Made by a program: the position numbers and the translations under genes. Of a stretch of DNA of 64,000 nt, positions 14,859 to 49,839 are shown piece by piece (the stretch's first letter is position 1; each line of letters starts with the position of its first letter). Source of the stretch: Rhodothermales bacterium (GTDB lineage Bacteria > Bacteroidota > Rhodothermia > Rhodothermales > JANQRZ01); assembly GCA_028284265.1 (NCBI GenBank), contig JANQRZ010000024.1, positions 64,132 through 128,131 on the forward strand, in the 5' to 3' direction. The notes beneath the pieces are model-generated. The model did not search any database and had not been told where the DNA came from. It saw only the letters and a list, made by a program, of their open reading frames with translations.

Positions 14859-15310
14859 GCTCACAGCCGTGTCAATAAATGAGCCTACGCAATCTTTGGC
14901 TCTGCGAAAAACAGCGAGACCGGCCAGCGTGGACCGGTTTCAGGTAGTGCGGGGTACACCAAGATACGGGTTTGTCGAACCACGTCATCGATGGATTTCG
15001 CGAGCTTTATGCTCTTCATAATCTGTTGCCCGTCGATTCTATAGACAGGAAGCCATAAAAGCTAAGGCACGTCTAATAGCACCGTGCGGAAAGCCATGTG
15101 AATCGACGCCAGGAAATCATCCCTGATAGGGTCCAATAACCACTCCGAAGGAGACGAAGTGGAGAGTTTGTGCGTCTCGCATTGAGGGCAAAGCAACAGG
15201 ATGCGGTGGTAGTGATCGCTTACATTGATAGGGTTCCTGGGCGTTCCTCCCGGGCACCAACACAGGCTCTATTCAATGAACTCGACCCACCCATACCCGA
15301 AAAACCTCAA

Positions 15311-16912
15311 ATGCTGCGCCCGATTTTCCCTGTTTCTGATGTTGGCTCTGTCTCCGCGCAAGCTGTTATAGGACCTTCCCTTCAGCGCGCCTACCGTTGC
15401 ATCCCACTCGGCCTAGACGGTGAGCATCTCCGCATAGGTGTGGCGGGCGAGCTATCTGCCGAAGTGCTTCGAGAGCTTGCTTTTGCCACGGGGAAGCGTA
15501 TTGAGCAAGTGGCGGTCGATAGTGACGTCATCGAGCAGCACCTAGCGAAGATTGCAGACAGCGAACCTTCCGGGCAGGCAGTCGATGCGCTTGCCGACGA
15601 GGCTGCTGGGCAACACGGGGATGCAGAACCGGAAAACCAGACTGAAAGAAGCGGCGTAGAGAGCAGTCCGATGAGCCCATACACGTTGCCAATGACCGAC
15701 CTCCAAGTCGGTCCTGTTGTTCAACAGGTCGACCGGATCATCCAACGCGCGATCCGGCTTGGAGCGAGCGACATACACATTGAGCCCTACGAGGAGACGC
15801 TCCGCGTGCGCTACCGCTTGGACGGTTTGCTTCATCTGGCAGGCGAGCTTCGGTACGCGCAGCGCGAGGCAATCGTATCGCGGATCAAGGTTCTCGCCTC
15901 GCTCGACATCGCCGAGAAGCGTCGCCCTCAAGATGGACGGATCAGCATCACGCACACGCAAAGTGACTCTACCGGGCAGGCAGTTGGTTCAGGAGCACGG
16001 ACTGTTGATCTCCGGGTATCGGTGCTCCCTACGCATTTCGGGGAGAAAGCTGTACTCCGCATTCTTGACCGGGAGAGCCTGCGTCTTGACCTCGGCGCGC
16101 TGGGGCTTGCTGGGGCCTCGGCTGCGGCCTTCCATCGGGCTATCGAAGCGCCGCACGGGATGGTGCTGGTCACTGGGCCGACCGGCAGCGGGAAGACGAC
16201 TACGCTCTACGCTGCGCTGAGCGCACTCCCGCGAGAGCGCCTGAACGTAACGACGGTCGAGGACCCTATCGAGTACGACATCCAGGGGGTGAACCAAACC
16301 CAGGCAAGGCCCGAGATCGGGTTTTCGTTCCCCGAGGCGCTCCGGGCGTTTCTGCGCCAGGACCCGGACGTGATTATGGTGGGCGAGGTCCGGGACACAG
16401 AGACGGCCGAGGTCGCTGTGCGCGCCGCGCTTACTGGGCACCTCGTGCTGTCTACGCTCCACACGAACGACGCGCCCTCGACGGTGACGCGGCTTGTCGA
16501 CATGGGCGTTGCACCGTACCTCGTGGCAGCATCCGTTCGGCTGGTCGCTGCGCAGCGGCTGGTGCGCCAGGTGTGCCCAGGCTGCAAAGAGCCGTTGGAC
16601 CACGGCCAACTACCAAAGAATCTCGAGCGCGACCTGGAGCGGGTGCTCGGAGCAGGCGAAGCTGCCGAGCTAGTCCAGGGGAGAGGGTGCGATGCGTGCG
16701 GCGGAACGGGCTACCGGGGGCGGATGGCAATCTTCGAAGTCATGCCAATGACCGAAGTGGTAGCCCGGCTTGTTGCAGACGGTGCGAGCACGCAGGAAGT
16801 CCGCATGCAGGCCGAGTCCGAGGGTATGGAGTCGCTCCGCCAGGCGGCGGTGCGGAAGCTCGCCGCAGGTCAGACGACTATAGAGGAAGTTGTGCGCGCT
16901 ACCATCGCCTAG
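15311..16912 (+). CDS. Type II secretion / type IV pilus assembly ATPase (GspE/PilB family)
   Basis: The N-terminal T2SE_N-like domain reads YRCIPLGLDGEHLRIGVAGELS. Walker A is VTGPTGSGKTTT and Walker B is DPDVIMVGEVRD. The tetracysteine motif CPGCKEP...CDACGGTGYRGR is present. The track ORF opens at GTG 15170; ATG 15311 is preferred. Confidence 0.9.
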   Translation: MLRPIFPVSDVGSVSAQAVIGPSLQRAYRCIPLGLDGEHLRIGVAGELSAEVLRELAFATGKRIEQVAVDSDVIEQHLAKIADSEPSGQAVDALADEAAGQHGDAEPENQTERSGVESSPMSPYTLPMTDLQVGPVVQQVDRIIQRAIRLGASDIHIEPYEETLRVRYRLDGLLHLAGELRYAQREAIVSRIKVLASLDIAEKRRPQDGRISITHTQSDSTGQAVGSGARTVDLRVSVLPTHFGEKAVLRILDRESLRLDLGALGLAGASAAAFHRAIEAPHGMVLVTGPTGSGKTTTLYAALSALPRERLNVTTVEDPIEYDIQGVNQTQARPEIGFSFPEALRAFLRQDPDVIMVGEVRDTETAEVAVRAALTGHLVLSTLHTNDAPSTVTRLVDMGVAPYLVAASVRLVAAQRLVRQVCPGCKEPLDHGQLPKNLERDLERVLGAGEAAELVQGRGCDACGGTGYRGRMAIFEVMPMTEVVARLVADGASTQEVRMQAESEGMESLRQAAVRKLAAGQTTIEEVVRATIA

Positions 16913-17172
16913 CGCCGTTCTTTTCCTCTTGTGGAATCTGGATGCCTGGTAGAATGTGATGGCTATTGTATTTGTATTAAACCGGATGAGATAAATCTTG
17001 GGCACCAAGGAATGACCTTGACTTTATGGTGTTTCGGTTTGTATTTGATAATATCGATCGTCCCGCGCTCTGGATGACAGCTTTCCAACGGTGCTTTGAT
17101 GCATCCTTGTTGGCTCCCTTGCGTTTCTATCCTGCTCTCGTAACACGTACGATCCTGCTCCCCCGACTCCAC

Positions 17173-20100
17173 ATGGTCACCGCAAAAATAGTGGGACGCA
17201 CCCGGCGTGCATGTTGGGTTCTCATTGCACTCGTTGCTACCTATCCAGTCAATGTATTGGCGCAGGGAATTGAGGCGCTCAACGGGTACGGCGTGCAGCC
17301 TGAAGTTCACCACTTCGCACGGCCTCAGACGGCTGGAGTGGATGCCTATGGTGATCTCAACCTCCAAGTCCCCGTGATGAATATTCCCGGGCGAGGAGGA
17401 CTCGACTTCGACGTTACCCTCAGCTACCGCTCAGGCATCAAGACGACACAGCGTGCATCGTGGGTGGGTCTTGGCTGGTCCTTCGATCCAGGTTCGATTA
17501 CGCGCTCCCCAAACGGTGGGGCGTCCATGAACAGTACGTTTTATAACGTTGACTTTGCAGAGCCTACCCAGTATCTCCAAGACACGTACTATCTGACCCT
17601 CCCCGGGCGTGGGACGACGGAGATGATCCGGCGTCATAATTTTCTTCCGGCGACGCCCAGTCCCTGGACGGGAGGGGATCTAGATCCGAATGGTTTTTCG
17701 CTTGCTTCGTGGCGCCCTTGGCGGGTCGAGTACTTTGCTGAGGAAGCAGGATACAACCTCATCGATGTCAATGATCTGGATCCAACAGTGGGATGCGCTG
17801 CGGAAGTTGCTGACTACCTCAAGGCCGGGAAGCTTACCTATGTCGGCAGTTCAGGGGATCCTCCTTGGGAGGACAAAGAGGAATTTTCCCACTTCGTAGT
17901 TACTACGGAAGACGGAACGCGGTACGTGTTCGCCGCGCCAACGCTGTCGACCTTCGTTGCAGGAATGCCTCCCAATCACACCGGAGTAGACTACCAGTCG
18001 CTGGAGTATTACGTGGGTGCGTGGCGACTTGTGGCTATTCTTGGCAACGATTACGCCTGGAACGGTGCGCTAAACACGATTCCTTCTAGGGCGAATAATA
18101 ACCTTGACGAGCCTGGCCGTTGGGTGGCGTTCGAGTATTCTCTAGCACAGGGCCTCCTGTCGAGCCGCTCGGGTAATACAGTCTATCCTGACTCTTGGAG
18201 GCATGTTGAGCACGCTCGCTATCTACAAGAGATTATCACGCCAACTCACTATGCTAAGTTTGAAGTGTCGGCTAGTGTTTTTTACGATGGAGGATGTACT
18301 AGCGGTGTCAACCCTGTGGCACGAGGAGAGCACCGGAGTCAACTCAACGGCATCAAGCTCTACAAGCGGGGCCCAGATGGCCAGCTGGAGATGCCGGACC
18401 ACCTTATCAAAGAGGTTCGCCTGGGGTTTGACAATACGCTACACTGCTCTCCGGCAACGTGCGCGGGCGCCAATCCGACGCATACCACGCTCAGTGAAGT
18501 ATATGAGATTGACCGCGCAGGTAACGCACTGCCTGGGTATTCGTTTGATTACGGGGCAAATGTCCCGGGGTGGAATCCAGACCCAGAAGAGTTACAGGAT
18601 TTCTACAGTACGGGGAATACCATTCACGCGATCAGCGATCACTTCCGTTACTTCAACAGGGGAGGAGGAGAGCCTTATGATCACGTCGGACGACACTACT
18701 TCGACACAGACGCTACTGATGCCCGGGCGTGGTCTCTCAGAAAAGTGACCTTCCCAACGGGGGCTTGGGAGCAGTACGACTACGAAAACGATCAGATCGA
18801 CGAACTCCTATATCAAGAGCCTCCCGACAGTGGTTGTGGATCCCAATGTCCAGTGCAAAACTTTACGAACATTCCTTTCTATAGGTATGACAGCGATTGG
18901 GAGGGATATGTTGCAGGTCAGGAGGCCTACTCCTTCAACGTTACATGGCCTCCAGGGACTATAGATCGCTTTGAGGAGCGGTACAGACAAGGTGGTGTGC
19001 GCGTAACCTCTATTACGCGGCCTGGCAGTGATGAAAGTGGCACCAGTCAAGTCACGCAGTACGAGTATGGCCCAGGTAACGCGACAGGGATACCATCTGG
19101 CTTCTGGCAAGAGTTCCAAAGGGACTACAGCGACTACATCTTTACCCCGCCCTCTCGGGGTAAGGACGCTGTCATCTATGATTCAGTAAAAGAGATCAAG
19201 CCAGACGGGACAGAGCGCTACCGAGAGTTTCTAACCTACAGAAAGTATGACATCTTCACGCCGGTAATCGGCGACCAGTACTCCACGCCGCGACGCGTTA
19301 GCTCGGTGTTCTTCCGAGATGAGGCTGATCCCAACTATATAACTGTCATTCAGGGAAATGAGCACCTCAACTGGGGGAGCGTTCTCTACGAGACCAACTC
19401 GTATTGGGGAGGGGCTTCATCGAACCGGATGACGCGGCGGTACTCGTGGCATGATCATCGGATTTACGCTGGCGCTCCAGTGTGGCCCCCAGCAGGGCAA
19501 AACCAGGGAGGCCAACCCGATGAAGCAAGAACGCCCTTCGCGGGCTGGATGCATGCGGGGCTTCTACTTGAGGAGCATGAGTTCGACGGGTACGAGTTCC
19601 AGTTTCCGGAGAGTGACATCTGGTCCACCCAAACAGGGGGCGCTATGCACCGGGGCGCTTGGTACGAATACGACCAAGGAAACAATCCCAATAATGGGTC
19701 TTTCCTTTTAAAGCGGAAGATCGAGACGGTAAGTCTGCCAAGCGACTTTGATTTCTCAAGCGACTGGCAGCGCCAGCTCCGCGTGACCGACTACACACGA
19801 GCCTACGAGAGCTACGCGAGTGTTGACCCCTTGCAGAATCCGTTCTTTGTGAGTGGCAACTTGGCTGCTGTCGCCCAAGAAACGGTCTCTGACGCACGGG
19901 TCGGGTGGCAAGACCAGATCAATGTCTGGGACGACATCAGTCACCCGATGGCGTCTGTGACACCTATGACATCGGTTGTGACGACATGGAGCAACACATT
20001 GGGAGTTGCCTCGTGGAAGCCGTCAGAGTCATACGTATGGCTCAAGGAGAATAGCGGGGAACTGGCCCACTATTGGAGCTCGTCAGTCTATCCGACGGAC

Positions 20101-23100
20101 TGGACTGGCGGTAGCGCGGGTGGTGACTGGTTGCTTCAAGAGAAGAACGTTGGCTTCGACCAGCACGGCCAGGTGACGAGCCGGACTGTAGGTGGTGTTG
20201 ACCTGTTACTCGAGTACGGGGGGTGGAAGAACACCGAGCTTCATAAGGTCACGGCAGGCAGTGGCAGTGAGACGGTCTCTCGCACGCTTTACTACGACTC
20301 GGAGACGGGTCTCCTTAACGAGGTCTTGGACGACAACGTGGAGGGGCCTTCGTTTGCCTACGACGAGAGCCTGCGGCTTGCCGAGACGCTCGATGCAGAG
20401 GGGCGCGTCACGGCAGCCCACAACTACCACCTCCGTGGTGAAGGGGGTATCGTCTCTAGTGCCCCTAGCCACGCAGAGACGGTTGTCTACGCCAACGGAA
20501 ACCTGATCCGAAACGGCTCCTTCGAGCTTGCCGAGCGGAATGGATGCCAACCAAGTGGCGCAGCGCAAGCGTGGACGATGGGCGGTGCCACGTTGCAGTG
20601 CTACCGAACGGACGCAGCCCTGGGTGTCTCGTATGCCGAGACTACCTCTTCAACGGCGATCACCCAGAGTGTCACAGTCGAACCGGGGCGAGAGTACGTC
20701 GTTGTGGTGTTTTTCGGCGGGGCGGGTGCTCAGGGGCGGCTGCTCCTCGCCGACGGAAGCGGATCGGCGAGTGGAATCGAGGTTCTGGATTCCGACGGAG
20801 ATCTTACTGAGGGGCAGTTGTCGGGCTGGCACACGCTCACCGAAGGGGGCGGCCAAAGTGGAGCGTGGCGGATGAGATGGGCACGGGTCCGACCGACCGT
20901 TAGTACGATGCAGGTGGGGCTTGCGCGGGAAGGCGGAGGTGGTGCCCTGCGGATCGATGCTGTTGCTGTGACGCCGATTCACGAGGGCTACGACCCTGAG
21001 CAGGACGACGACAGGTATCTGGACCTGGCATATCCTTCTGTTGCCGTGGGCTACACCAACCGCTGGGGCGAGACGGTGCAGACGGTCACAGCGGAGGGGC
21101 CGTATGCAATCTCAGAAGAGACAACGCAGCACCAGACGCTCGACGTGCTCGGGGCAGTCACGAAAGCCTGGCTCCCCGTCCGTGGGGAGTACGGCACGAG
21201 TGTGATTGGTGCCTACGGTACAGAAGCCCAGGTTGGCGCTCGTGCTTCGACCTATTATTCAGGGAGCCATGTAGATGATGGCGTCCCGGTGCCGGGAGCA
21301 GGAGGAGTGCCGTTTGCCGAGCAGGAGTACTACCAAGACCTCCACCGGATGCCCAAGCTCTCCCGGCCGCCGGGCGACGACTTCAGTGATGATGAGACGA
21401 GGTTCGAGCACGTCGTTGCGGGGGTCAGCGTTGAAGATGGGCGGGTCCGTACCGAACTTGGACGGGTCGAGGACCCTGACGGACGGATCACCCATACCTA
21501 CGTCGACTCAGAAGGGAAAGAATGGATGAGGCGGCAGGTAGGGTCGAGCGATCAGCTACCAGAGGACTCCAAAGTACTCCACAACTACGTCGATGGTGCT
21601 AACTATCAGACCTGTGGGGCACCTCGAGAGGCAGCACCGGAGACGGGTCTGCCCCAGCGTACGCCGGTTTCGGGGCCGTGTCCTGTGATAGAAGAGGTTA
21701 CCGTGCAGCTTCGCCAGGCCATCGAGTACGAGGTCCATCTCGAAGTTGGCGGACTGACCAACGCCGGGCTAGTGATTGCAGAAGTCAATGTCTACGAAGA
21801 AGACGCAGGGACGTCGTGGCCCTACTACCACCCCATTCTCGTGATGCGCGAGACGGTGTCCAACGAAGTGAGTGAGGCGTGCTCGGAGACCTATGACGGA
21901 ACTCAAAGCCCTCAGATAGACAACTGCCGCTACGCTCTGAAGACAGGGTTTGTGCTGGCCCGACCCGGGAAGAGGTACATCTTCGAAGCGAACACGCTCA
22001 TCACCACCGACGACGATCATACCGTAGAGAAGCACGCTAGGGTGGATGCGATCGTTCGCTATTACGCTGGGGATCTAGCTTCAGGTGTCACACGGCCGTT
22101 TACGGAGACAGAGTCCGAGTATGACTTCAACGGCAACCTCACCGTGGTCCGCCCGCCGAACTACTTCGAGCCGCCGAGTGGCACCGACAGCGACTACGAG
22201 ACGCGCTACACCTACGACTCGGCGGGCCGGATGCTCTCGCAGCGCACGCCGGATGCCGGGACGACGACCTATGGGTACGACGAGCATAGCCGGATGCGCT
22301 ATAGCCAAGATGCCAATCAGGCGGCTGCAAACAGTGGGGCAGGCGAGTTTATGCTGTACTGCTACGATTCGGTTGGAAGGATCTCAAGGCAGGGGTTGGT
22401 AGACGTACTTCCTCCTGCGGGAACGTGCCCGGGCGAGACCGACCAGAGTGTGGACTGGCGGCTCATCAACCGCTACGATGAGGCGGTAAACCTCTCCGAT
22501 GCGCCATTCAATGGGTGCAACGCAGGATGTGCTTCGTTCGAGTCGCAGTTAGAGAACACGGCAGGGCGGCTGGTCGCCTCGGCCCATAAGAGCAACGGGC
22601 AGTGGCAGGCGACGTTCTACTCCTATGATGCCGACGGCCGGGTGGTGATAGAGGCCAAGCGTGCTGATGGTGCTGCACCCGAATGGGATTACCATCGCTT
22701 CGCCTACGACGCAAGCGGTAAGGTCGTCTGGACGAACGTGGACATTGGCGATCACGAACTCACCCACTACTATACCTATGACCGGCGTGGGCTGCTTCAC
22801 CGCTCCTATGTCTCATCACAGGCTTCCATGCCGTCGCGCCCCGCAGAGCCGGATGCCGAGTACACCTACGACGTCGCGGGCCGCATGGCAAAGGTGGGTC
22901 TTCGGAAGACCAACGGAGGTAGCTTCAGGGTCTTGACGCCCTACACCTATGACATCCAGGGGCGGCTCGTTGCCATTGGAGGCATCGATAAGGATCCGTG
23001 GGCATCGTCAGCCCCCTTCTCGTCTCGTTACACGTACAGCGCCGCAGGACTAATCGAGCGTGGGGACTATCTCACGCCGGATGCAGTCCAGTATGCTAGT

Positions 23101-25191
23101 AGTATCACCCCCCAAGACGGGCAGTGGCCGCGTTGGCAGTACCGCTACGAGTACGACGGGCTCGGGCGTTTGGCCAACGCCAAGTATCATGAGTACCGGC
23201 AGCCGCCTTCGACTGGCTACGATCCACCTGAGATGACCGGTCTGCAAGAGGGACCCATCGTCTATGATGCCAATGGCAACATTACGGCGCTTCAGAGACG
23301 GGTGCCAGCCGCATCGGGTGGAGCAAGTGTGATCGACGATCTCACCTACAGCTACACGCCCGGGACGAACCGGCTAAGTGGCCTCGGGGAGGCGGCCGGT
23401 GGATCGTCTCCGCCTTGGGACGCGGAGGCCATGTCGCTCAGCTACGACCCCAACGGGAACGTCACCGTCATGGACAGCGGCGGGGAGCAAACCTCGTTTG
23501 CGAAGTACGACGAGCGCAACTTGCCGCTCAGGGTGACGACGCCGGATGACCTAAACGTTCACTACCGCTACGACGCCAGCGGTCAGCGGATCGGTCTTCA
23601 GGTCAACACCGTGGGCTTCAACGCAGGCTCTGGGGGGACCGACCCACACTACAAGGTAGAGCGCTACGCACGTTCTGGGGCCAACCTCGTGGGCACCTTC
23701 GATGGCGAGGGCAACCTCCTGCATTGGAATATGCAGGGCGGCCCCGGCGGCCCCATTGGGCGCATCTACCCGACGAGTGTCACCATCGCGCTCGTCCGCG
23801 AGGTGGCCGAGCAGCGCATCCGCGACACCCTCGCCGTCTACAGCCAGACGTATGTAGCTGAGGGTCTCGCCCACGCAGGACTCGCACAGGCGGAGGCCGA
23901 CAGTCTTGCAGCCGTTGGAGCGACGAGCACCGACGCGGCTTTCGACTCCGGCGTGGTGCCGTCGGTCGATGTGGTGGTAGACACGACGCAGGCGCAGGCC
24001 AATCAGGCCGGGCAGGCGTACTACGCGGCGGTACTGACTGCGACGGAGGATGCGCTCCGGGGAACGCTTGTCGGGGCAGGCTACGCGCAGGGCGTGGCGG
24101 ACTCACTCGCGGCCATCTCAGCGGCGGAGGCGGCTGCGCGGGCAACAAGCAGCGTGCAACAGGTGATCGCGGCGGCGCAGCAGTACCCGGTCGGGGGAAC
24201 GTATCTGGAGCGCTCGTACTACGTGAAGGATCACCTGGGGTCGGTACGGGCGACGGTGAGCCAGTACGGTTCGGTGCGCGAGGCGCGGGACTACTACCCG
24301 TTCGGGCTCGAAATGCCGGGGCGCGTGTGGGTCAGTGGGAGTGAGACGAGGGAAGGCTTCACGGGGCACGAGTTGGATGTGGAGACGGGGCACTACTACG
24401 CCGGGGCGAGGTACTACATGCCTGCGCTCGGTAGGTGGACGACGACCGATCCAATGAATGAGTATGCCTCACCGTACATCTATGTGGGCAACAACCCGAT
24501 CAGTTTGGTCGATCCCACAGGGATGTATAGTGACGACGGGTGGCTGGATCAACAGCAGGAACAGCTCAACAGCCGGATTGGGATTAGTGGCGGAGGTGGA
24601 GATTGTCCTGATGGGACGCCTCCGCCTTGTGAAGATTCTGAAGGCGAAAAGGGTATTGGTGATAAAATTAAAGACGGTTTAACTGCTGTTGCAGTATCTG
24701 CGATTGGGATAGGAGAAGACGGTGTCGACGCTGCATCTAGATTAAGTGGTCGAGCCTTAGAAAGTGTTAAGAACCGTGCCGCTCGCTTCTCAGTTGCAAG
24801 TCGGGAGGCAGCAGAGGATATTTTGTATAGTATAGAGCGAGCCAAGGCGTCTCGATTAAACGGTTTGGCGAGAGGAACTCAAGCCTTGGGTGTCGTGGTT
24901 ATTGTTGTGGACGGTGTAATAGCGTTTGAAAGGGCTGGGGATTATCTAGAACAAGGAAGACATGTAGAGGCTATCGGCGAGGTGGTCGAATTTGGTGGAA
25001 ACACATTAGGAGGCGTAGGTGGAGCTGGGCTAGGTTTCGGGTTCGGAATGCTGATTACATCAGGTTCAGCTGGAACGGGTGCACCTGTGATAGTTCCCTT
25101 GACTCTCGGTGGCGGTTACATCGGTGGACAGCTAGGAACCCCTTTGAGAAGTGGTACTGAACGATTGTTACGATCATTTGGACTTGAGTAA
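17173..25191 (+). CDS. Giant Rhs/YD-repeat polymorphic toxin 1 (SpvB/TcB-like N-terminus, Rhs cocoon, variable C-terminal toxin)
   Basis: The signal peptide is MVTAKIVGRTRRACWVLIALVATYPVNVLAQG. An SpvB-like motif (PVMNIPGRGGLDFDVTLSYRSG...GLGWSF) lies at 17353-17503. There are many YD repeats, for example YTYDSAGRMLSQRTPDAGTTTYGYDEHSRMRYSQD. The Rhs core YYVKDHLGSVRA...YYPFGLEM...GFTGHELDVETGHYYAGARYYMPALGRWTTTDP ends at DPTGM (24511-24525). Confidence 0.9.
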   Translation: MVTAKIVGRTRRACWVLIALVATYPVNVLAQGIEALNGYGVQPEVHHFARPQTAGVDAYGDLNLQVPVMNIPGRGGLDFDVTLSYRSGIKTTQRASWVGLGWSFDPGSITRSPNGGASMNSTFYNVDFAEPTQYLQDTYYLTLPGRGTTEMIRRHNFLPATPSPWTGGDLDPNGFSLASWRPWRVEYFAEEAGYNLIDVNDLDPTVGCAAEVADYLKAGKLTYVGSSGDPPWEDKEEFSHFVVTTEDGTRYVFAAPTLSTFVAGMPPNHTGVDYQSLEYYVGAWRLVAILGNDYAWNGALNTIPSRANNNLDEPGRWVAFEYSLAQGLLSSRSGNTVYPDSWRHVEHARYLQEIITPTHYAKFEVSASVFYDGGCTSGVNPVARGEHRSQLNGIKLYKRGPDGQLEMPDHLIKEVRLGFDNTLHCSPATCAGANPTHTTLSEVYEIDRAGNALPGYSFDYGANVPGWNPDPEELQDFYSTGNTIHAISDHFRYFNRGGGEPYDHVGRHYFDTDATDARAWSLRKVTFPTGAWEQYDYENDQIDELLYQEPPDSGCGSQCPVQNFTNIPFYRYDSDWEGYVAGQEAYSFNVTWPPGTIDRFEERYRQGGVRVTSITRPGSDESGTSQVTQYEYGPGNATGIPSGFWQEFQRDYSDYIFTPPSRGKDAVIYDSVKEIKPDGTERYREFLTYRKYDIFTPVIGDQYSTPRRVSSVFFRDEADPNYITVIQGNEHLNWGSVLYETNSYWGGASSNRMTRRYSWHDHRIYAGAPVWPPAGQNQGGQPDEARTPFAGWMHAGLLLEEHEFDGYEFQFPESDIWSTQTGGAMHRGAWYEYDQGNNPNNGSFLLKRKIETVSLPSDFDFSSDWQRQLRVTDYTRAYESYASVDPLQNPFFVSGNLAAVAQETVSDARVGWQDQINVWDDISHPMASVTPMTSVVTTWSNTLGVASWKPSESYVWLKENSGELAHYWSSSVYPTDWTGGSAGGDWLLQEKNVGFDQHGQVTSRTVGGVDLLLEYGGWKNTELHKVTAGSGSETVSRTLYYDSETGLLNEVLDDNVEGPSFAYDESLRLAETLDAEGRVTAAHNYHLRGEGGIVSSAPSHAETVVYANGNLIRNGSFELAERNGCQPSGAAQAWTMGGATLQCYRTDAALGVSYAETTSSTAITQSVTVEPGREYVVVVFFGGAGAQGRLLLADGSGSASGIEVLDSDGDLTEGQLSGWHTLTEGGGQSGAWRMRWARVRPTVSTMQVGLAREGGGGALRIDAVAVTPIHEGYDPEQDDDRYLDLAYPSVAVGYTNRWGETVQTVTAEGPYAISEETTQHQTLDVLGAVTKAWLPVRGEYGTSVIGAYGTEAQVGARASTYYSGSHVDDGVPVPGAGGVPFAEQEYYQDLHRMPKLSRPPGDDFSDDETRFEHVVAGVSVEDGRVRTELGRVEDPDGRITHTYVDSEGKEWMRRQVGSSDQLPEDSKVLHNYVDGANYQTCGAPREAAPETGLPQRTPVSGPCPVIEEVTVQLRQAIEYEVHLEVGGLTNAGLVIAEVNVYEEDAGTSWPYYHPILVMRETVSNEVSEACSETYDGTQSPQIDNCRYALKTGFVLARPGKRYIFEANTLITTDDDHTVEKHARVDAIVRYYAGDLASGVTRPFTETESEYDFNGNLTVVRPPNYFEPPSGTDSDYETRYTYDSAGRMLSQRTPDAGTTTYGYDEHSRMRYSQDANQAAANSGAGEFMLYCYDSVGRISRQGLVDVLPPAGTCPGETDQSVDWRLINRYDEAVNLSDAPFNGCNAGCASFESQLENTAGRLVASAHKSNGQWQATFYSYDADGRVVIEAKRADGAAPEWDYHRFAYDASGKVVWTNVDIGDHELTHYYTYDRRGLLHRSYVSSQASMPSRPAEPDAEYTYDVAGRMAKVGLRKTNGGSFRVLTPYTYDIQGRLVAIGGIDKDPWASSAPFSSRYTYSAAGLIERGDYLTPDAVQYASSITPQDGQWPRWQYRYEYDGLGRLANAKYHEYRQPPSTGYDPPEMTGLQEGPIVYDANGNITALQRRVPAASGGASVIDDLTYSYTPGTNRLSGLGEAAGGSSPPWDAEAMSLSYDPNGNVTVMDSGGEQTSFAKYDERNLPLRVTTPDDLNVHYRYDASGQRIGLQVNTVGFNAGSGGTDPHYKVERYARSGANLVGTFDGEGNLLHWNMQGGPGGPIGRIYPTSVTIALVREVAEQRIRDTLAVYSQTYVAEGLAHAGLAQAEADSLAAVGATSTDAAFDSGVVPSVDVVVDTTQAQANQAGQAYYAAVLTATEDALRGTLVGAGYAQGVADSLAAISAAEAAARATSSVQQVIAAAQQYPVGGTYLERSYYVKDHLGSVRATVSQYGSVREARDYYPFGLEMPGRVWVSGSETREGFTGHELDVETGHYYAGARYYMPALGRWTTTDPMNEYASPYIYVGNNPISLVDPTGMYSDDGWLDQQQEQLNSRIGISGGGGDCPDGTPPPCEDSEGEKGIGDKIKDGLTAVAVSAIGIGEDGVDAASRLSGRALESVKNRAARFSVASREAAEDILYSIERAKASRLNGLARGTQALGVVVIVVDGVIAFERAGDYLEQGRHVEAIGEVVEFGGNTLGGVGGAGLGFGFGMLITSGSAGTGAPVIVPLTLGGGYIGGQLGTPLRSGTERLLRSFGLE
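24526..25188 (+). other. Variable C-terminal toxin domain of Rhs1 (glycine-zipper/hydrophobic, putative membrane-disrupting)
   Basis: This is the 221 aa after the DPTGM cleavage-type motif, where the DNA turns AT-rich. Hydrophobic Gly-rich tracts are ALGVVVIVVDGVIAF and LGGVGGAGLGFGFGMLITSGSAGTGAPVIVPLTLGGGYIGGQLG. Confidence 0.55.
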
Positions 25192-25259
25192 TGGGTGTTT
25201 AGGAATCATTATGTACGATCACCATGCTTGTTGATTTTTTATCATAATGATTATGAGAC

Positions 25260-25847
25260 ATGACACCTGTAGGAAGTTGTAATTTAGGCTGTACGAAGAT
25301 CACCGCGCCAAAGCCGATGCCTAATAGAAGACATGCTTATCATGGTGAAAACCATGTGGAGTTGAGGATCAAAAAGATTGTAATATCACTTTGGATTTTT
25401 ATGATATTACTTGGAATGTACATCTTGATTTCTGATGGCGATCGCATTGGGAATATGGTGCCTAGCTATGTGATTCTGTTGCTGTTTTTGATGTTTGCTA
25501 TTGCTCTGCTCCAGCCTATTATTACGTATCGCGTACTGCTTAATGATAGGGGCATTCATGTGAAATGGGTTCTGGGTGCAAAAAAATGTAAGTATCTTTA
25601 CAGGCGTAAAGCGTCTTGGGAAAGCGTAAAGGAATTGTCTGTATTAAACATAGGGCTAAAGCCTATGGTGCTCAATTCCATTATCATCCATTGTGTTGGT
25701 GATGTGGAGAATGTCAGTTTTGCGCTGAATAACATGCTTGTTGACTTTCGATGTGGCGCTAAGTATGTGCTAGAAAACGCAAAAACAAAAAAAATAGACT
25801 CGAGAATCATAGACTCCTATTATAACTACACATCAAGATCGGATTAG
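25260..25847 (+). CDS. Putative cognate immunity protein 1 (two-TM membrane protein with small C-terminal domain)
   Basis: The gene lies 68 nt after the Rhs1 stop on the same strand and is very AT-rich: line 25381-25440 is 18/60 G+C by hand count. TM helices are IVISLWIFMILLGMYILI and YVILLLFLMFAIALLQPII. The architecture resembles membrane-flanked bPH/DUF304-type proteins (from memory). The start is uncertain; an alternative ATG is at 25317. Confidence 0.55.
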   Translation: MTPVGSCNLGCTKITAPKPMPNRRHAYHGENHVELRIKKIVISLWIFMILLGMYILISDGDRIGNMVPSYVILLLFLMFAIALLQPIITYRVLLNDRGIHVKWVLGAKKCKYLYRRKASWESVKELSVLNIGLKPMVLNSIIIHCVGDVENVSFALNNMLVDFRCGAKYVLENAKTKKIDSRIIDSYYNYTSRSD

Positions 25848-26207
25848 CCTACCTTTCCAGAGGCTAGAGGCTCTAGCGAGCATCGTAAGATGATTTCGCT
25901 TCTTCTTGTGTTTCATACTCGTTGATCTGCCCTCCGAGGCCAGCCAGCGTCTCGCACAGGATGTGCAAGCAGTCACTCGGTGTGAGGTTCAACCTTTTCA
26001 TCGGGTGCTCTACCCTAGGCAGGGGCTGGATTGAGTTCCAGTCTGGCTTTTCCGTGTCGATTCTGGTTCAAGGGAAGAGAAAAGCTCTTGAGTCGTATCA
26101 TTTCGCAGCGCCGGACCTAGGGTTTAGATATTTTCCTTGACTAAAGTATCCTCCATCACGAGCCGTCTTCTGTTCAGCGGCCAACACGGTTAGTAGGATC
26201 ATCGCGC

Positions 26208-28406
26208 GTGACCGACCCCACAGGAAACCATAGAGCTGCACCGTACTCACGCACACGGTGGGTCCGTTCGGCACGCCTTGGTGCCGCATTTACATTCATC
26301 TTCCTCTCGCTAGCTGTCCTCCCGACTCCGGCGGCCCAAGCTCAAGACACTCCGCCCGGTGAACCGGCGGAACCCCTGCCGGGTGTTCCAGAGATCCGCG
26401 TCAACCGGGGCGGGCGGCTTCCGGCGGCAGCCTTCGACCAGATCCAGGCGATCAACTTCAAGAACACCGACCTGCGGGACATCTTCCGGGCGGTCGCCGA
26501 GGAGTCCGGCCTAAACCTCGTCATCGACGACCGTATTACCGAGCGCGCGACGGTCGCGCTCCGGGACCTCAGCGTGCTCGATGCGCTCGTCTTCCTGGCT
26601 GAAGAATACGAACTCTCGCTCATTCAGTCGGGCTCGGTTTTCCGCGTTCTGGTCCCGGACCCTGGGCCTCCGCCTCCTGCCCCTGTGCCGCGTCCGATAG
26701 ACGTTCTGTTCCGGGACGGCCTGATAACAGCGGACTTCCGGGGCGATCCGGTGGAGCGCGTCGTGCGTCTGCTGGCCGAGGCGACCGGCGAGACGATCCT
26801 CCTTTCGGCGGGCACCTCGGGCACGGTAAGCGGGCTGCTTCAGCGGGTCCCGTTCGAGACCGGACTCCGGCGGCTTCTCGAGACGAACGGGTTTGCCGTC
26901 CGGCTTGTAGACGGGGTCTACGTAGTGGACCAGGGGTTTCTCGCTTCGCCCGAGGAGCCGCCCGTCCCCGGAAGCTACGTCCGGGTGGACTCGACGGGCG
27001 TCGAGCTACGCCTGGAGCAGGCCGACGCCGCGCGTGTACTCCGGGAGCTGGCCCGCCAGTCCGGGGACGGGATCGTGACGTACTCTCTACCTCAGGGGCG
27101 AACCATAACCGCGAGCGCTGCCGGGCTTTCCGTGGAAGAGGCTCTCGGGGTTGTCCTGCGCGGGACCGGGATTTCGTTTCGGCGAGAGCCTACCCCGGAT
27201 GGGTCGCCGCTCTGGGTGGTCGGCAGCCGCGAAGGGGACGGAATCACAGCGACCGAACTGATCCGGCTTGGCTTCACGCGGGTCGATGGCGTGGAACCAC
27301 TGCTCCCCTCGGAACTCGCCGCCCGTGCCTCGGTCCAGGTCGTGCCCGAGCAAAACGCGCTCCTCGTCACCGGCTCCAACGATGCCATCGCCGAGGTTCG
27401 GGCCTTCGTCCGGGCGCTCGACTACCCGGCCCCGCAGATCCTGATCGAAGCACTGGTCGTCGACTACCTCGACACCGAGGCCACGCGCTTCGGCTTCACC
27501 TTCGGGCAGGGGAGTTTCGCAGGCGACTCTCTTCAAGCGCAGCGGGAGCGCGCCTACCGTCTTGACGGCCTCGGCGACGGTGCGTTCACGCTCGAAGGCG
27601 ACGGCGGCGACGTGAACTACGCGCTCCGCGAGGTGGAGGACTTCTTCGGGATCGGCTCCATCGGACGCCTCCCGGCAGACTTCTACTTCCGCATCGAGGC
27701 GCTTGCGCGCGAGGGGAAGCTCGAGATCCGGTCCCGCCCCCAGATCGCCACGCTCAGTGGCAACACCGCCTCGCTCTCGATTGGGACGACGCAGTACTTC
27801 ATTCTCGAGACCGAGAACCCGCTCCTCGGGCAGGGCCAGGTGGTGGTCCAGACCTCGGAGCGCTTCGAGAAAATCGAAGCCAACGTGAGCCTTGAGGTGA
27901 CGCCCTTCGTGAGTCAGACCGGCGAGGTGACGGTCAACATCAAGCCCGAGTTCTCGACGCCCGTTGGGCAGTTCCAGCCCGACGTGCCGCCGACGATATC
28001 GAGCCGAGTCTTCGAGTCGAACGTCCGGCTCCGCGACGGGGAGACGATCATCCTTGGTGGGCTGATCTCAGACGAGGAGGTGATCGACGACAACAAGATC
28101 CCGATACTCGGCGACATCCCGGTCCTCGGGTGGCTCTTCCGCAGCCGGGTGCGCTCGACGAGAAGGAGCGAGCTTGTGATCTACCTCACGCCGCACGTCT
28201 TTTACGGCGACGGGCGCGACCAGGACCGGTGGCGAGCACTCTCCGAGGAGTTGGAGCTTCACGACGAGGGCGTGTTCCTCGTACCGAGCGATCTCAAAGA
28301 AGGGGGCGACCCTGAAGAGAGGGTTGACATGGTGGATGATGCGGAGCCGGACGACGAAATGGTGCCAGAGGACGAGGAGGTAGACGATTCGGGAGGGCAT
28401 CCGTGA
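26208..28406 (+). CDS. Secretin (GspD/PilQ family outer-membrane channel)
   Basis: The protein has a signal peptide (...LAVLPTPAAQAQ) and an N-domain motif INFKNTDLRDIFRAVAEESGLNLVIDD. The C-terminal secretin core reads NVRLRDGETIILGGLI...IPILGDIPVLGWLFRSR...ELVIYLTPHV. The start is GTG and the C-terminal tail is acidic. Confidence 0.9.
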   Translation: MTDPTGNHRAAPYSRTRWVRSARLGAAFTFIFLSLAVLPTPAAQAQDTPPGEPAEPLPGVPEIRVNRGGRLPAAAFDQIQAINFKNTDLRDIFRAVAEESGLNLVIDDRITERATVALRDLSVLDALVFLAEEYELSLIQSGSVFRVLVPDPGPPPPAPVPRPIDVLFRDGLITADFRGDPVERVVRLLAEATGETILLSAGTSGTVSGLLQRVPFETGLRRLLETNGFAVRLVDGVYVVDQGFLASPEEPPVPGSYVRVDSTGVELRLEQADAARVLRELARQSGDGIVTYSLPQGRTITASAAGLSVEEALGVVLRGTGISFRREPTPDGSPLWVVGSREGDGITATELIRLGFTRVDGVEPLLPSELAARASVQVVPEQNALLVTGSNDAIAEVRAFVRALDYPAPQILIEALVVDYLDTEATRFGFTFGQGSFAGDSLQAQRERAYRLDGLGDGAFTLEGDGGDVNYALREVEDFFGIGSIGRLPADFYFRIEALAREGKLEIRSRPQIATLSGNTASLSIGTTQYFILETENPLLGQGQVVVQTSERFEKIEANVSLEVTPFVSQTGEVTVNIKPEFSTPVGQFQPDVPPTISSRVFESNVRLRDGETIILGGLISDEEVIDDNKIPILGDIPVLGWLFRSRVRSTRRSELVIYLTPHVFYGDGRDQDRWRALSEELELHDEGVFLVPSDLKEGGDPEERVDMVDDAEPDDEMVPEDEEVDDSGGHP

Positions 28407-28481
28407 CATTCCCCACTCCGACGGATCACGAGGGGTGCAGTGTGGTGCCCCGGCGGTACACGGCCCAGCGCGGAGTACGCG

Positions 28482-30023
28482 ATGCGAGCGGCTGACCTTC
28501 TGCGGGTGCCCTACCTTCAGCGCGTCGGCGTCGGGCTCCACATCGGGCCCCGCGCAGTGCGCTGGGTGGAACTCTCGCGCTCCTTCGCTGGGGTGCCTGG
28601 CCTAGAGTCCTCCTTAGGACGGCTCCGGCTCCGGCGCTCCGAGGTCGAGCCGGTGGAAGGCGGGCAGCACGAGGCTGCGCTTGAGCGCCTCATGGCCCGC
28701 GTCCAGCCCGCCTCCCCGTTCGTCCACACGCACGTTGACCCGGAGCACGTCCGGGTCCACTTCGAGACGGCCCCTGCGTTTGAGGACGACGAGGATCTCG
28801 CCGCGTGGCTTGCCGAGCGACCGTCGCGGTATGTACCAGCAGGCAGCACCGCGTCTGAGTTCATCGCCCGGACGGCCGTCGTGTCGAGGCATCCGCCGGG
28901 GGACTCAGAAGGCGCGCGGTGTCTCATCTCGCTTGCCCGGCGCGAGGCGGTCGAGGAGCGGGCGGCCATGCTGGAGCGCGTAGGACTCGTTCCGCTTAGA
29001 ATAGGAACCGGTATCGTGGAGGTAGGCTCGGCCTTTGCTTTCGACCCGGACTATGAGGCAAGCGAGCCGGTCGTGGTACACGTCTGGGACGACGCTGCTG
29101 GGGATGAGGCAGCGACGGCCCTGCAAACGCGGCGGGCGATGCCGTATGATTTGGCAGTTCTTCCAGGTGTGCTCTCGGCTGGCCTGCCGCTAGACGGTCT
29201 GGTGTCGGAGATAGAGGCGCACTTTGGTGGGGCACTTCGGCTTGCCTCCCCAGACCGCGAGGGCGAGCGGGGTACCGTCTGGATCACCGGAGCGGTGGAA
29301 CGGAGCGGTCTAGCCAGTGGGGGGTACGCAGGTGCCCAGCGTCCTCGCATCATGCGGCCTCTGGCGACAGTCCTAAAAGGGAGGGTGGTTCCGGCGGATT
29401 CCGTTCTAGCAGCCTCCCTTGCGACTGAGGCCCTATACCCGGAACTCGCCCTGATGGACGTGCAGCGCACGGCTCAGACCGAGGAGGCCGAAACCGAGCA
29501 CGAGAAGCAGGAGGCCTACCGGGCCGTGCTTGGCCTCGGGGTGTTGGTACTCGCACTCCTCATTCTCTCAGGCGCGGCTGGGTGGATGCTCCAAACTAAA
29601 GTCGACGAAGTCCGGGTCTCGGTGGCGAGTCAGTCGGGTGAACTGGCAGAGCTTGCCACGGCGCGCAGGATGCAGGAACGACTGAGGGCCGACCTCGCTG
29701 TAGGGCGCGCGCTGGTCCACGAGCGAACCGTAGCCGCGGTCGTGCTTGAAGCTGTGGGGCAGGCTGTCCCAGACGAGATGGAACTCAGCAGCATCCAGTT
29801 TGAAACATCGCCCGGCGGCGATGTGGTTGTTGCCCTCTCCGGGTGGACAGCGACCCCTGCTGGGGTTCGGGACCTCATCGAGCGCCTCGAAGCAGACGAG
29901 CGGTTCTCTGGGGTTCGCTTGCTTTCCACCGAGCGCCTAGATGGAAGTCAAGCTGAACGCGAGACGGGACGCTCAATATCTGTGACCGTATTCTCACTTT
30001 CTGTAGTCTACCGTCGCTCGTAG
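28482..30023 (+). CDS. PilM-like / PilN-like fusion protein (pilus or T2SS inner-membrane assembly component)
   Basis: An N-terminal ~350 aa soluble region has a PilM-like layout. It is followed by one TM helix (AVLGLGVLVLALLILSGAAGWML) and a PilN-like periplasmic tail (ELSSIQFETSPGGDVVVALSGWTATPAGVRDLIERL). The assignment rests on architecture and gene context. An alternative GTG start is at 28440. Confidence 0.6.
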   Translation: MRAADLLRVPYLQRVGVGLHIGPRAVRWVELSRSFAGVPGLESSLGRLRLRRSEVEPVEGGQHEAALERLMARVQPASPFVHTHVDPEHVRVHFETAPAFEDDEDLAAWLAERPSRYVPAGSTASEFIARTAVVSRHPPGDSEGARCLISLARREAVEERAAMLERVGLVPLRIGTGIVEVGSAFAFDPDYEASEPVVVHVWDDAAGDEAATALQTRRAMPYDLAVLPGVLSAGLPLDGLVSEIEAHFGGALRLASPDREGERGTVWITGAVERSGLASGGYAGAQRPRIMRPLATVLKGRVVPADSVLAASLATEALYPELALMDVQRTAQTEEAETEHEKQEAYRAVLGLGVLVLALLILSGAAGWMLQTKVDEVRVSVASQSGELAELATARRMQERLRADLAVGRALVHERTVAAVVLEAVGQAVPDEMELSSIQFETSPGGDVVVALSGWTATPAGVRDLIERLEADERFSGVRLLSTERLDGSQAERETGRSISVTVFSLSVVYRRS

Positions 30024-30205: not shown

Positions 30206-33200
30206 ATGACTGCTCGCAACCACGTCTCGATGCAGCGTGCTAATAGCAAATTGACGGGGTCCAGATTGCTTTTAATCACACGAGCTGGGCGAAGGTCTGC
30301 GTTAGGCGGGGGCGTTCTCGTCTTGTTGCTGCTTTCCTCGTTCGCCTGGGCGCAGCCAACTGATCCGTCGGCTGTATTTAATCAACATCTCGTGCAACCC
30401 GAGGCATACAGTATGCCTGGAGCGCCTGAGGCCGGTGTCAATGAGAAGGGGGACTTGGCGCTCCAGATACCGGTGTTGACCGTGCCTGGTCGTGGGGGAC
30501 TCGACTACAATATCACGCTTAGCTATGCGTCGGGAATTAAGCCCACCCAGGAGGCTACATGGGTGGGACTCGGGTGGCATTTCGACCCGGGGAGCGTCAG
30601 CCGGGGGGTACAAGGAGGACCGTCTTGGCCCGTAGCAGGTTGGCCGGTAACGGTCGATGGTGATGACCTCCGCGAGCTTCATGGGGCTGATTTTACCGAT
30701 GCTCGGGCTCATTACCAAGATGCCTACTACATCTCGATTCCGGGCCAAGGAACTGCGGAGGCCCTGAAGGGCAACTTCAATGCAGGTATACCGAGATATC
30801 CTGGTCTCATGATTGAGAACGGGACTACGCCCGGAATTATGCCCGGTTGGAGCGGGGGGTTTATGATGACCTCGTGGCGTCCCTGGATAATTCAGGCTGA
30901 AGAGTCGGACGGGCCTTCGCTGGTCGAGGGTACGTGGGGGCAGGGGCCAGGGACAGCCGTAGAGACGGGGCGTGCGCTCTACGAAGGCGGACAGCCTCTG
31001 TTTGAGCAGATGAAGGATTTCGAGCGCTTTGTCGTTACGACGGAGGACGGGACACGCTACGTGTTCGGGCAGCCTACGATTTCGACCTACGTGGGGGTTC
31101 TTTCCTCCCAGACGGGTACGTTCCCCAAGTTCTTTGACCACCATGTGAGTTCATGGCGGCTAACGGCGATTCTGGGGGCTGACTACACCGGCGGAGTCGA
31201 CGATCCTGTGGGAGGACCAGGAAGTTGGATCAAGTTCGAGTACACAGACCCTCATACCCTATATCAGTACGTTGACCCCGAAGGCCATCCAAGCGGGGAG
31301 TCCGGTGCTTTCCAAATTTTCAGACAGCATACCTACCTCAGTCGGATTGTGACGCCCACGCACGAGGCCGTGTTTGAGATTAGCGCTCCGGGAGGTTTTC
31401 CTAACACGCCCATCGTAGAGTCCTTCGCGTTTCACTCAAGAGTGTTCCTCCAGACCATCAAGGTATTCAAGGGGAGCGCTACGGCCGGGACGCTACTTCG
31501 GCAGGTCCAATTCAACTGGGACGGCGACGGATTCCGGCGCGTATGTGCCGACTGCACCTACAACGATCCTGACAACGGTCATCGCCGCGGACGCCTCAAT
31601 GGCATCGAGTATAGCGACCGGCTTGGGCGCCCCGAGCCGGGTTACACCTTCAGCTACGAATCGCCGGACCCCGACTTGATCTACACTGGTGGCGTCTTTC
31701 CTGGGATTTTTCTGGAGCAAGATGACTTTGGATTCTACACCTCGCGCGATGGTAACTCCGGGAATGTCCCCTTCGGATCTCCCCGGTGTGTCGTGTCAAC
31801 CTGTGACGGAGCAGGGTGTGACAATACCCTTGATGGAGCCCTCGGCTGCCCAGATACTCACATGCCTGAGGCGGCAGCCTGGAGTCTGACCAAGGTTGTC
31901 TACCCCTCGGGCGTTCGTGAGGCCTACGAATATGAGCACGATTACATTGACCCAGGCATCGTGTTTGACTTGTCCGGTAACTCCGATCCAGACCTGCTGC
32001 TCAAGAAGTCGTACGATGTTCTCTCGCTGGTCAATGGACCGTACACGGGGCATACCGGAGAGTATCTCGTTGCCTCCCAAGGGAACGGTTCGGTAGGTCG
32101 AGGTCGGTACCAGGGGGGGACGCGCGTGCGGAGCATTAAGCGAACCGAGCCACTCTCCTCCATTGCTGTGACTACGGACTACTCGTACCGATCTGGCACG
32201 TTCACAGGCATCCCAGAGGGATACTGGACACACCTCTTTGGTAGCGACCGGCTGACGTACCAAAAACAGGGTACGAGAAGTGGAGCGTCGGTCGTGTATT
32301 CTCAGGTGGAGACGACTCGTTCGGATCCAGGGAATAGCAACGATGTGACTACGGTTGAGACGACCTACTTCACAGATGTGACGAGTTTCCCGGCGCTCTT
32401 GAGTAAGGCCAATACTGTTGTCTTCGAGGACCGTAATCAGTCCAACGGGGGACACAAAGGGTTTCTAGTCGTCACGGACAATCTCCCCCACAACTGGGGG
32501 CGCAGCTACAGGACGATCCGCGAAGAGACCGACCCGCAGACTGGAGCCGTTCGCCGTGTGGTTACGAAGGAGCGCCAAGAGAAAGGTGGCTTCATCGGCC
32601 ACGCGAACTTGATGACACTGTCCCCCGCACACGGGGTCGCCGACGCTCTGAAGGTCTACTGGAACCACCATAACCCGGTCGTTAGCGAATACGAGGAGGA
32701 AGTGCTCTACGACCCTGTGGCTCCCGACCACCGCATTCGGACCCAGGTGCTTTACGAGCGTGACTTCTGGCGGTCGCCCTCAAGCGACGGGCTGGGTATG
32801 GTGCGGCGAGTCGTTGAGGTCCCCTACAACCACTGGCGGAGAGTAGCTAAAGACTTCGTATATGCAGGCGATGTCTACAGCGAGCTACGGGATCGGGGCA
32901 TCTTCTCGCCTGTGGTCGCAGAGTACACCTACGAGCTTGGTAATAACGAGACGGCCGTTGGGAGCGATGCCCCCTCGGTTTTCACAAAAGGGTTTTATGC
33001 TACCGCTCAAGACTCCCTCGATGCCAACGCTATCAACGGAACCGGAATCCAGGGCCTGGGCCAAGGGTGGACTTTTCTGCGTCCAGAAGACCGGATTGGG
33101 CACATAGATCCCTTTAGTGGGCCCCAGGGTGACTTCCCTTCCTGTGACTACCATGTGCACTGCCTGACAGACGAGACCGGTGGCGGGGGAGGAGGGGGCG

Positions 33201-41059: not shown

Positions 41060-41147
41060 GCTGTTCCACGATGTATCCTGAGTGATCGCCTCGCATAGAG
41101 CGTCCTCTTGCCAAGCTGATTCACCCGCTCAAACGGAGGTGCACACG

Positions 41148-48231: not shown

Positions 48232-49839
<1,608 letters not shown>

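Follow-up and report, generated by a model that had tools for sequence, protein, structure and literature searches.

A putative membrane-permeabilising Rhs tip with a two-helix membrane-protein partner in a Rhodothermales bacterium carries a module found in type IV secretion effectors

A stretch of 64,000 nucleotides (nt) from a Rhodothermales bacterium (GenBank assembly GCA_028284265.1, contig JANQRZ010000024.1, positions 64,132 to 128,131; here called the window) encodes Rhs1, a large RHS-repeat protein that ends in a variable C-terminal domain of 221 amino acids (aa), tip 1, and is followed on the same strand by an open reading frame (ORF) of 195 aa. Tip 1 was found to contain a glycine-rich membrane module of about 110 aa that is also present in proteins resembling effectors of type IV secretion systems (T4SSs), and the ORF encodes a protein with two predicted transmembrane (TM) helices. 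We favour, with modest confidence, the reading that tip 1 is a putative stand-alone membrane-permeabilising toxin that would work like the C-terminal fragment of Tse5 (Tse5-CT) and its antidote Tsi5; "pore-forming" is our best guess at its action, by analogy with that pair. An earlier note on this DNA had proposed a horizontally acquired tip with a membrane immunity partner; horizontal exchange of an Rhs tip together with a membrane-protein partner was well supported by the core boundary, by an island of low G+C content at third codon positions (GC3) and by the two-TM partner.

The end of the Rhs core was located precisely. The core model TIGR03696 matched Rhs1 (E = 9.4e-21) over model positions 1-76 of 76, with its last residue exactly at the motif DPTGM (aa 2500). 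Since the model stops there, DPTGM was taken as the canonical end of the core and the next 221 residues as the C-terminal tip. RHS/YD repeats were present in Rhs1 (RHS_repeat PF05593, E = 3.8e-12 over 5 stretches; YD_repeat TIGR01643, E = 2e-9), the N-terminus gave a weak SpvB match in the Pfam scan, and the core matched the PDB chains of TcdB2-TccC3, YenC2, the mosquito protein SGS1 and Tse5. By analogy, the core is presumed to comprise an aspartyl autoprotease and a cleavage site that frees the tip within the shell, and cleavage would occur after DPxG(L/M), as in Tse5 and TcC (PMC9637101). The true start of Rhs1 is probably M50 (nt 17173), which would open a Sec-type signal peptide, MVTAKIVGRTRRACWVLIALVATYPVNVLAQ (nt 17173-17265); the longest ORF begins 49 codons before M50, and the codons at 17026-17172 are probably untranslated. 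Signal-like N-termini were read by eye in Rhs1, in the second Rhs protein of the window (Rhs2) and in homologues at two Balneolaceae loci (L009 and L010). Those of Rhs1 and Rhs2 both end ...AQ and are followed by a conserved LVQPE stretch.

Rhs elements classically combine a GC-rich core with an AT-rich tip. In the window, the G+C content was 0.59 in the Rhs body, 0.50 in tip 1, 0.32 in the 68-nt spacer, 0.39 in the 195-aa ORF and 0.66 in the secretin gene, with 0.617 for the window as a whole. GC3 fell from 0.67 for the Rhs body to 0.35 for the tip and 0.43 for the ORF, and it was 0.80 for the secretin gene. Because GC3 shifts too, the change in composition sits in codon choice and is not an amino-acid effect, and tip 1 and the ORF together form one low-GC3 island. 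The hand counts given in the earlier note (18/60 G+C at 25381-25440 and 40/60 at 26401-26460) were exact, and the neighbouring gene that it called a secretin gene matches PF00263. The abrupt switch that it placed after DPTGM is real but lies about 60 nt further on: in steps of 20 codons, GC3 was still 0.65 over the first 20 tip codons and then 0.15-0.45, so the junction falls near nt 24586. Scans for promoters, terminators and repeats around the island returned nothing above background. The spacer between the 195-aa ORF and the secretin gene (25848-26207; 360 nt, GC 0.52) holds a 42-aa ORF on the minus strand (25873-26001), which a Logan assembly of this same sequence lists as a gene. Balneolaceae loci with related operons have 34-36% G+C, and relatives of that kind would, speculatively, be plausible donors of the AT-rich cassette.

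The first 45 residues of tip 1 form an acidic linker containing Gly, Pro and Cys (net charge -8), and helices at aa 64-85 and 93-111 were predicted, with low confidence, by AlphaFold2 (AF2). Judged by its sequence, the whole of aa 1-94 is too small and too low in complexity for an enzyme. In the module that follows (Table 1), the hydrophobic helix reaches a Kyte-Doolittle 19-aa mean of up to 1.76, and the string ALGVVVIVVDGVIAF, to which the earlier note had drawn attention, was located within it at tip aa 120-134. In the glycine zipper, the small residues of the first helix stand in register (G158, G162, G166, G170, G174, T178, A182 and A186), the turn holds Pro (P187 and P191), and G196, G200 and G204 are in register in the second helix. 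The Gly-rich hydrophobic tract described earlier is thus present, but the quoted string has 41 aa and not 45. The further claim that the 221-aa tip lacks a detectable enzyme domain held across Pfam, NCBIfam, PDB, PHROGs and PADLOC: tip 1 had no match in Pfam or NCBIfam, nothing below E 0.05 in PHROGs or PADLOC, and 0 matches at E<=10 when it was compared by phmmer with all PDB chain sequences. With PF13488, PF13441 and PF05433 of Pfam there was no match at E<=10, either for the whole tip or for its last 127 and last 66 aa, and XVIPCD (PF20410) was not matched in the tip or in Rhs1. A word-seeded homology search of 5.8 billion clusters gave no match for tip 1, nor did tblastn against plasmids for either the tip or the 195-aa ORF.

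An exhaustive phmmer search with the tip over 1.84 billion representative proteins returned four matches. The top two (P0002 and P0003) were rejected; these proteins are internally repetitive and were matched over short low-complexity stretches. The other two, P0004 (787 aa, E = 1e-4) and P0005 (503 aa, E = 1.5e-4), are genuine relatives that align over tip aa ~98-205. The module scored 37-40 bits, far above the maxima of 14.5-17.5 reached when the matched segments were shuffled 1000 times globally and 1000 times in 12-residue blocks, which indicated that the similarity is not compositional. The module, of about 110 aa, is common to tip 1 and the T4SS-effector-like proteins P0004, P0005, P0006 and P0009. 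It opens with LxRG..ALG at the hydrophobic helix, continues with R..D.L.QG...A...V.FGG..LG..GGA.LG and a Pro-containing turn, and closes with a second Gly-rich helix; at the hydrophobic helix, ALGVVVIVVDG of the tip aligns with ALGAVVVAIDA of P0004 and P0006. A family profile (alignment A2) matched residues 60-114 of SlyB (7ojf), its membrane hairpin, at E = 0.0027, a weak match that is partly compositional, and two of the relatives weakly matched Pfam Gly-zipper_Omp/YMGG (relatives' E 0.0011-0.9, below cutoffs). The word-seeded search with a 3-sequence profile yielded two fragments only, because Gly-rich words saturated the candidate list. When GTDB genomes were scanned for a degenerate pattern based on the module profile, 588 pattern matches came up, 0 of them confirmed, and the same scan of JGI metagenomes recovered P0004's contigs only. 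With two real relatives among the 1.84 billion representatives, the sequence family is very rare and, as judged by these searches, had not been described before. The system as a kind is familiar: membrane-depolarising tips with membrane immunity proteins are already a known class.

The proteins that share the module have the features of T4SS effectors. P0004 ends in XVIPCD (PF20410, E = 4e-8), the effector-recognition signal of Xanthomonadales-type bacteria-killing T4SSs (PMC6536674). P0009, which belongs to P0005's 50% cluster, consists of an N-terminal Zeta toxin (E = 1.6e-52), the module, a conserved middle region and a Gln-rich XVIPCD-like tail. When P0005 was compared with plasmids by tblastn, 20 Xanthomonas megaplasmids were recovered. 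Their proteins begin MPNYRTLFQDHHNIEQ... and carry a divergent copy of the module, with a DUF1629 gene upstream, and at least the X. hortorum megaplasmid protein is annotated as an XVIPCD protein. H10 and H11 of the Xanthomonas plasmid proteins correspond to the catalytic residues mutated in TfdA of S. maltophilia, an effector in which a GHH nuclease is followed by a "large central region of indeterminate function" and then by XVIPCD; this central region was reported to be similar to zeta-toxin family Xanthomonadales-type effectors (X-Tfes) (PMC11253643). From sequence comparison, the module may match part of this central region. Tip 1 itself scored a negligible ~5 bits against the Xanthomonas TfdA-like proteins, and the link to TfdA is therefore transitive, via P0005. 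At none of the relatives' loci examined did a small membrane protein adjoin the effector. Upstream of P0004, a 70-aa ORF (L002 2905-3117; L022 4617-5021) repeats part of the N-terminal region of P0004 (ASYDVYRITPKV...) and appears to be left over from an effector N-terminus that was duplicated or displaced.

The partner of tip 1 is a membrane protein, as had been noted earlier. Hydropathy gave Kyte-Doolittle means of up to 2.6 for its two helices, and a single-sequence AF2 model showed a hairpin at aa 30-95 with pLDDT (the predicted local distance difference test score) of 70-84, the remainder being below 50 and the overall value 50, not good enough to search for related folds. Basic residues stand on the N-terminal and C-terminal sides of the helices, which are joined by a short acidic loop; this suggests a topology with both termini in the cytoplasm. 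The ORF is an orphan; its sole match in the 5.8 billion clusters was itself (the NCBI record and one Logan assembly). Two family matches were set aside as hydrophobic-segment noise: DUF6585 scored 18 bits against a cutoff of 27.7 and covered the TM part only, and T6SS_Burk_ExIF scored 13.6 bits, below cutoff, over the TM helices only. No paper mentioning DUF6585 was found. That tip and ORF might be a single frame-shifted gene was ruled out, there being a TGA in frame one codon before the ATG of the ORF and a TAA at the end of the tip.

The scheme that we infer for this pair comprises cleavage, export through the secretin of a system like a type II secretion system (T2SS), membrane insertion, ion leakage and immunity. 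The Rhs core would autocleave past DPTGM, and the RHS shell would keep the 221-aa tip enclosed up to its delivery. Once in the target cell, the moderately hydrophobic helix at aa 119-135 and the zipper hairpin at aa 158-205 would enter the cytoplasmic membrane, where they would self-associate via their small-residue faces, and the ensuing ion leak would collapse the membrane potential. The producer would be shielded by the co-acquired 195-aa inner-membrane protein, with its two TM helices binding the zipper helices in the bilayer.

A different role for the module, to which we give a minor share of the probability, would be that of a membrane-translocation (entry) device, which would briefly open the inner membrane of the target so that an attached cargo can pass, as proposed for Tde1; in tip 1 the cargo would be an unrecognised small toxin in aa 1-94, or would have been lost. 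The arrangement of the relatives speaks for it: the module sits between a cytoplasm-acting toxin (Zeta, or transitively the GHH nuclease) and the XVIPCD signal, and the immunity candidates next to the effectors are soluble (DUF1629; a 116-aa protein). TfdA must pass the inner membrane of its prey and has a central region without an assigned function (PMC11253643), and the GxxxG zipper of Tde1 is required for translocation (PMC10240207). The Rhs tips at L009 (the upstream Rhs; 1-1173) and at the Fibrobacteria locus L013 (2560-3628) likewise open with long Gly/Ala-rich hydrophobic stretches that are followed by larger C-terminal domains, and tips of this Rhs lineage may commonly start with Gly-rich membrane segments. 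The L009 tip ends with an ...ILIHSGN...GCLLPG-like motif. On the other side, tip 1 has no obvious cargo, aa 1-94 being an acidic linker with two or three helices and no family match, and a cytoplasmic toxin would call for a soluble immunity protein whereas the partner here is a membrane protein. The two readings are also physically close to each other. In Tde1, the zipper region itself permeabilises the membrane and inhibits growth in a DNase-independent way (PMC10240207), so that entry and toxicity are not cleanly separable. The membrane-toxin reading was favoured over translocation because only the linker, the helices and 16 C-terminal residues lie outside the module, which leaves no room for an enzyme, and because the partner is a membrane protein and not a soluble inhibitor. 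In short, the tip in the window lacks an enzyme and has a membrane partner, whereas the relatives have an enzyme-linked module and lack a membrane-protein neighbour.

Several observations weigh against a membrane-permeabilising tip 1. In all relatives found, the module is internal to multi-domain T4SS effectors whose toxicity plausibly or demonstrably resides elsewhere, and by comparison with these effectors it looks more like an aid to membrane crossing. Nuclease-dead TfdA was not toxic in the cytoplasm of E. coli (PMC11253643), which indicates that the related central region is not intrinsically lethal from the cytoplasmic side. Given 35% Gly, the length of the GxxxG run was reached by shuffled sequences at p ~0.08-0.12; the periodicity alone is thus within chance, and support for the zipper comes from its conservation in homologues. 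The zipper tract is only modestly hydrophobic (Kyte-Doolittle ~1.3), and the single-sequence AF2 model of the tip was unusable (pLDDT 37). Finally, it is position, shared composition and topology that suggest an immunity role for the 195-aa ORF.

We regard it as improbable that the tip is a non-toxic or decayed cassette (a membrane tether or the remnant of a tip swap) and the ORF an unrelated hitch-hiker. Both are near-orphans, and the tip stops within a region that continues in the relatives (AGDK..D...IYSQ.D), so it is possibly a truncated form of a longer domain. Both ORFs are nevertheless intact in a stretch of 39-50% GC, in which stop codons are frequent, and the conserved positions of the module have been kept. 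Moreover, a tip, a short gap and a small ORF on the same strand within one island make up the canonical toxin-immunity layout, and this layout is repeated at Rhs2. Less probable still is that the hydrophobic tract merely anchors an enzyme domain missed by sequence methods. Many toxin folds do evade hidden Markov models, and the AF2 model of the tip was too poor for a fold search; against this, the module takes up aa 95-205 of the 221, and the rest consists of the 45-aa linker, ~50 aa of helices and the 16 C-terminal residues.

Both SpvB-N/Rhs genes of the window, each coding for ~2700 aa, lie within a type IV filament/T2SS-like operon that is complete (window 15170-45766). The secretin has its closest relatives, of 41-48% identity, in metagenome-assembled genomes (MAGs) of Rhodothermales, Rhodothermia, Rubricoccaceae and Balneolaceae and more distant ones in Fibrobacteria. 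In the Rhodothermales relatives (L005-L008, L011 and L017), the ATPase gene lies directly upstream of the secretin gene with no Rhs gene nearby; Rhs1 and the ORF are therefore an insertion relative to them. SpvB-N/Rhs homologues adjoin the same operon in Balneolaceae MAGs (L009 and L010) and Fibrobacteria MAGs (L013 and L016), and of the two Rhs copies at L009 one ends in the identical DPTGM. In this sequence context, the apparently Sec-exported Rhs proteins might leave through the outer membrane by way of the secretin, and the operon, which resembles those of type IV pili (T4P) and T2SSs, may serve Rhs toxins as a secretion route of their own. The literature was searched for links between Rhs proteins and type II secretion in Bacteroidota, and nothing relevant was found. 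About 2.4 kb downstream of the operon, a large serine recombinase (Resolvase, Recombinase and Zn-ribbon domains; 48175-49800) may mark the boundary of a mobile element. The window also encodes a lipase with a type IX secretion system (T9SS) tail, in keeping with a Bacteroidota/Rhodothermota origin.

Rhs1 and Rhs2 are 33% identical overall at the protein level, and their tips are unrelated. The Rhs2 tip had no match in PHROGs or PADLOC, and the 127-aa ORF behind it had no family match and one PHROG match at E 0.068; together they probably make up another toxin-immunity pair. Immediately upstream of the tips, where the cores end, the two genes share a patch of 176 nt (24282-24457 versus 37585-37760) with 86% DNA identity, on which tip exchange or gene conversion could act.

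Table 1. Positions of the features discussed, numbered from the first nucleotide of the window unless a locus is named
Feature	Position	Strand	Details
Tip 1, variable C-terminal domain	24526..25191	+	221 aa + stop (TAA)
Tip N-terminal part	24526..24807	+	aa 1-94: acidic linker, then predicted amphipathic helices
Conserved membrane module	24808..25140	+	tip aa 95-205; phmmer relatives, alignments A1/A2
Hydrophobic helix QALGVVVIVVDGVIAFE	24880..24930	+	tip aa 119-135, Asp mid-helix; hydropathy
Glycine-zipper hairpin	24997..25140	+	tip aa 158-205
Rhs1	17026..25191	+	2721-aa SpvB-N/RHS-repeat (TcB-TcC-like) protein, carrier of tip 1; ORF translation
RHS repeat-associated core	24292..24525	+	Rhs1 aa 2423-2500; ends ...NNPISLVDPTGM; TIGR03696
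Candidate immunity gene	25260..25847	+	195 aa; 68 nt past tip stop; translation
TM1 of candidate immunity protein	25374-25436	+	ORF aa 39-59; hydropathy
TM2 of candidate immunity protein	25455-25529	+	ORF aa 66-90; hydropathy
Basic cytoplasmic C-terminal domain (predicted)	25530-25844	+	~105 aa
T2SSE/PilB-type ATPase	15170..16912	+	PF00437, E 2e-127
Secretin	26208..28406	+	PF00263, E 1.3e-42
PilN-like	28440-30023		
Rhs2	30206-38437		unrelated 199-aa tip after DPTGN (from 37838), tip GC3 0.43
Rhs2 downstream ORF	38439-38822		127 aa, GC 0.37, directly after tip 2
PilO	39239-39862		
Pilin	40496-41059		
Prepilin peptidase	41082-41723		
PilX-like	41714-43210		
T2SSF	44558-45766		
Module-bearing effector relatives	P0009; L024 3350-5944; L025 3161-7198		

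Through the module, an Rhs tip is connected with T4SS effectors that kill bacteria, carry cytoplasm-acting toxins and have an uncharacterised central region. A stand-alone module accompanied by an antidote of its own would offer a clean way to test how such effectors cross the inner membrane of their prey. A broader idea, which we hold to be doubtful, is that the module is a portable inner-membrane breacher shared by Rhs tips of the Fibrobacteres-Chlorobi-Bacteroidetes (FCB) group and the central region of Xanthomonadales T4SS effectors such as TfdA, with the Rhs carrier exported via a T4P/T2SS-like machine. If so, tip 1 would be a minimal stand-alone breaching module with a dedicated membrane antidote and a tractable model for how a target inner membrane is crossed or wrecked by contact-delivered toxins, and Rhs delivery via such a machine would be distinct from type VI secretion systems (T6SSs), from Tc-toxin release and from Sec-only WapA. 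The pairing of Rhs genes with the operon in Balneolaceae and Fibrobacteria MAGs hints at an Rhs route in bacteria in which no T6SS was seen here.

Among known systems, one close parallel in layout is Tse5 (RhsP1) of P. aeruginosa, an Rhs protein with a 149-aa C-terminal fragment for which no function is predicted and in which TM and amphipathic helices occur (PMC9637101). Tse5-CT inserts spontaneously into membranes, forms cation-selective pores and depolarises the cell, and it is countered by the two-TM protein Tsi5 encoded alongside (PMC9637101; PMC12744356; PMC11630599). The likeness lies in the Rhs shell, the tip without a predicted enzyme and the neighbouring two-TM protein. The carriers differ: Tse5 starts with a PAAR-like N-terminus and is delivered by a T6SS, whereas Rhs1 has an apparent Sec signal and an SpvB-like N-terminus and is encoded in a T2SS/T4P-like operon. 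The PDB match to Tse5 covers the Rhs core; tip 1 had 0 matches at E<=10 in a chain set that includes the Tse5 entries 8cp6 and 9i9y, of which the 1121-aa shell chain was the one recovered. With the X-Tfes (TfdA and the zeta-toxin X-Tfes) the relation is one of sequence, and the module at tip aa 95-205 is the only detectable homology. Unlike these effectors, the tip in the window has neither XVIPCD nor an enzymatic domain, and the conserved stretch that follows the zipper is missing; its carrier is an Rhs protein and not a T4SS substrate, and it is paired with a membrane protein, a feature absent from X-Tfe loci.

Other glycine-zipper proteins are comparable in design. In Tde1, a T6SS DNase of Agrobacterium, consecutive GxxxG motifs permeabilise the cytoplasmic membrane (PMC10240207); there, the zipper is N-terminal and translocates the attached DNase, and the likeness to tip 1 lies in the GxxxG motifs, with no homology claimed. 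EsxX, TspA and LXG-T2 of type VII secretion systems, CdzC/D and the ionophores of contact-dependent inhibition (CDI) are likewise polymorphic-toxin C-terminal domains that contain glycine-zipper helices, depolarise the membrane and are matched by immunity proteins embedded in it (PMC12744356; PMC12955049; PMC11630599). All of these use other carriers (LXG proteins, CdiA or a type I secretion system bacteriocin), and no sequence relationship to the tip was detected. Lipoproteins of the SlyB/Pcp type (Gly-zipper_Omp, YMGG and Rick_17kDa_Anti) share the two-helix glycine-zipper membrane hairpin, but SlyB is an outer-membrane lipoprotein with a periplasmic beta domain and not a toxin. Finally, the TcB-TcC cocoon of Tc toxins resembles Rhs1 in its SpvB-like N-terminus, its RHS shell and its aspartyl-protease core around a variable toxin. 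Tc toxins differ in that no TcA-like gene was found in the 64-kb window, and the presence of an immunity-like gene next to tip 1 argues for a bacterial target.

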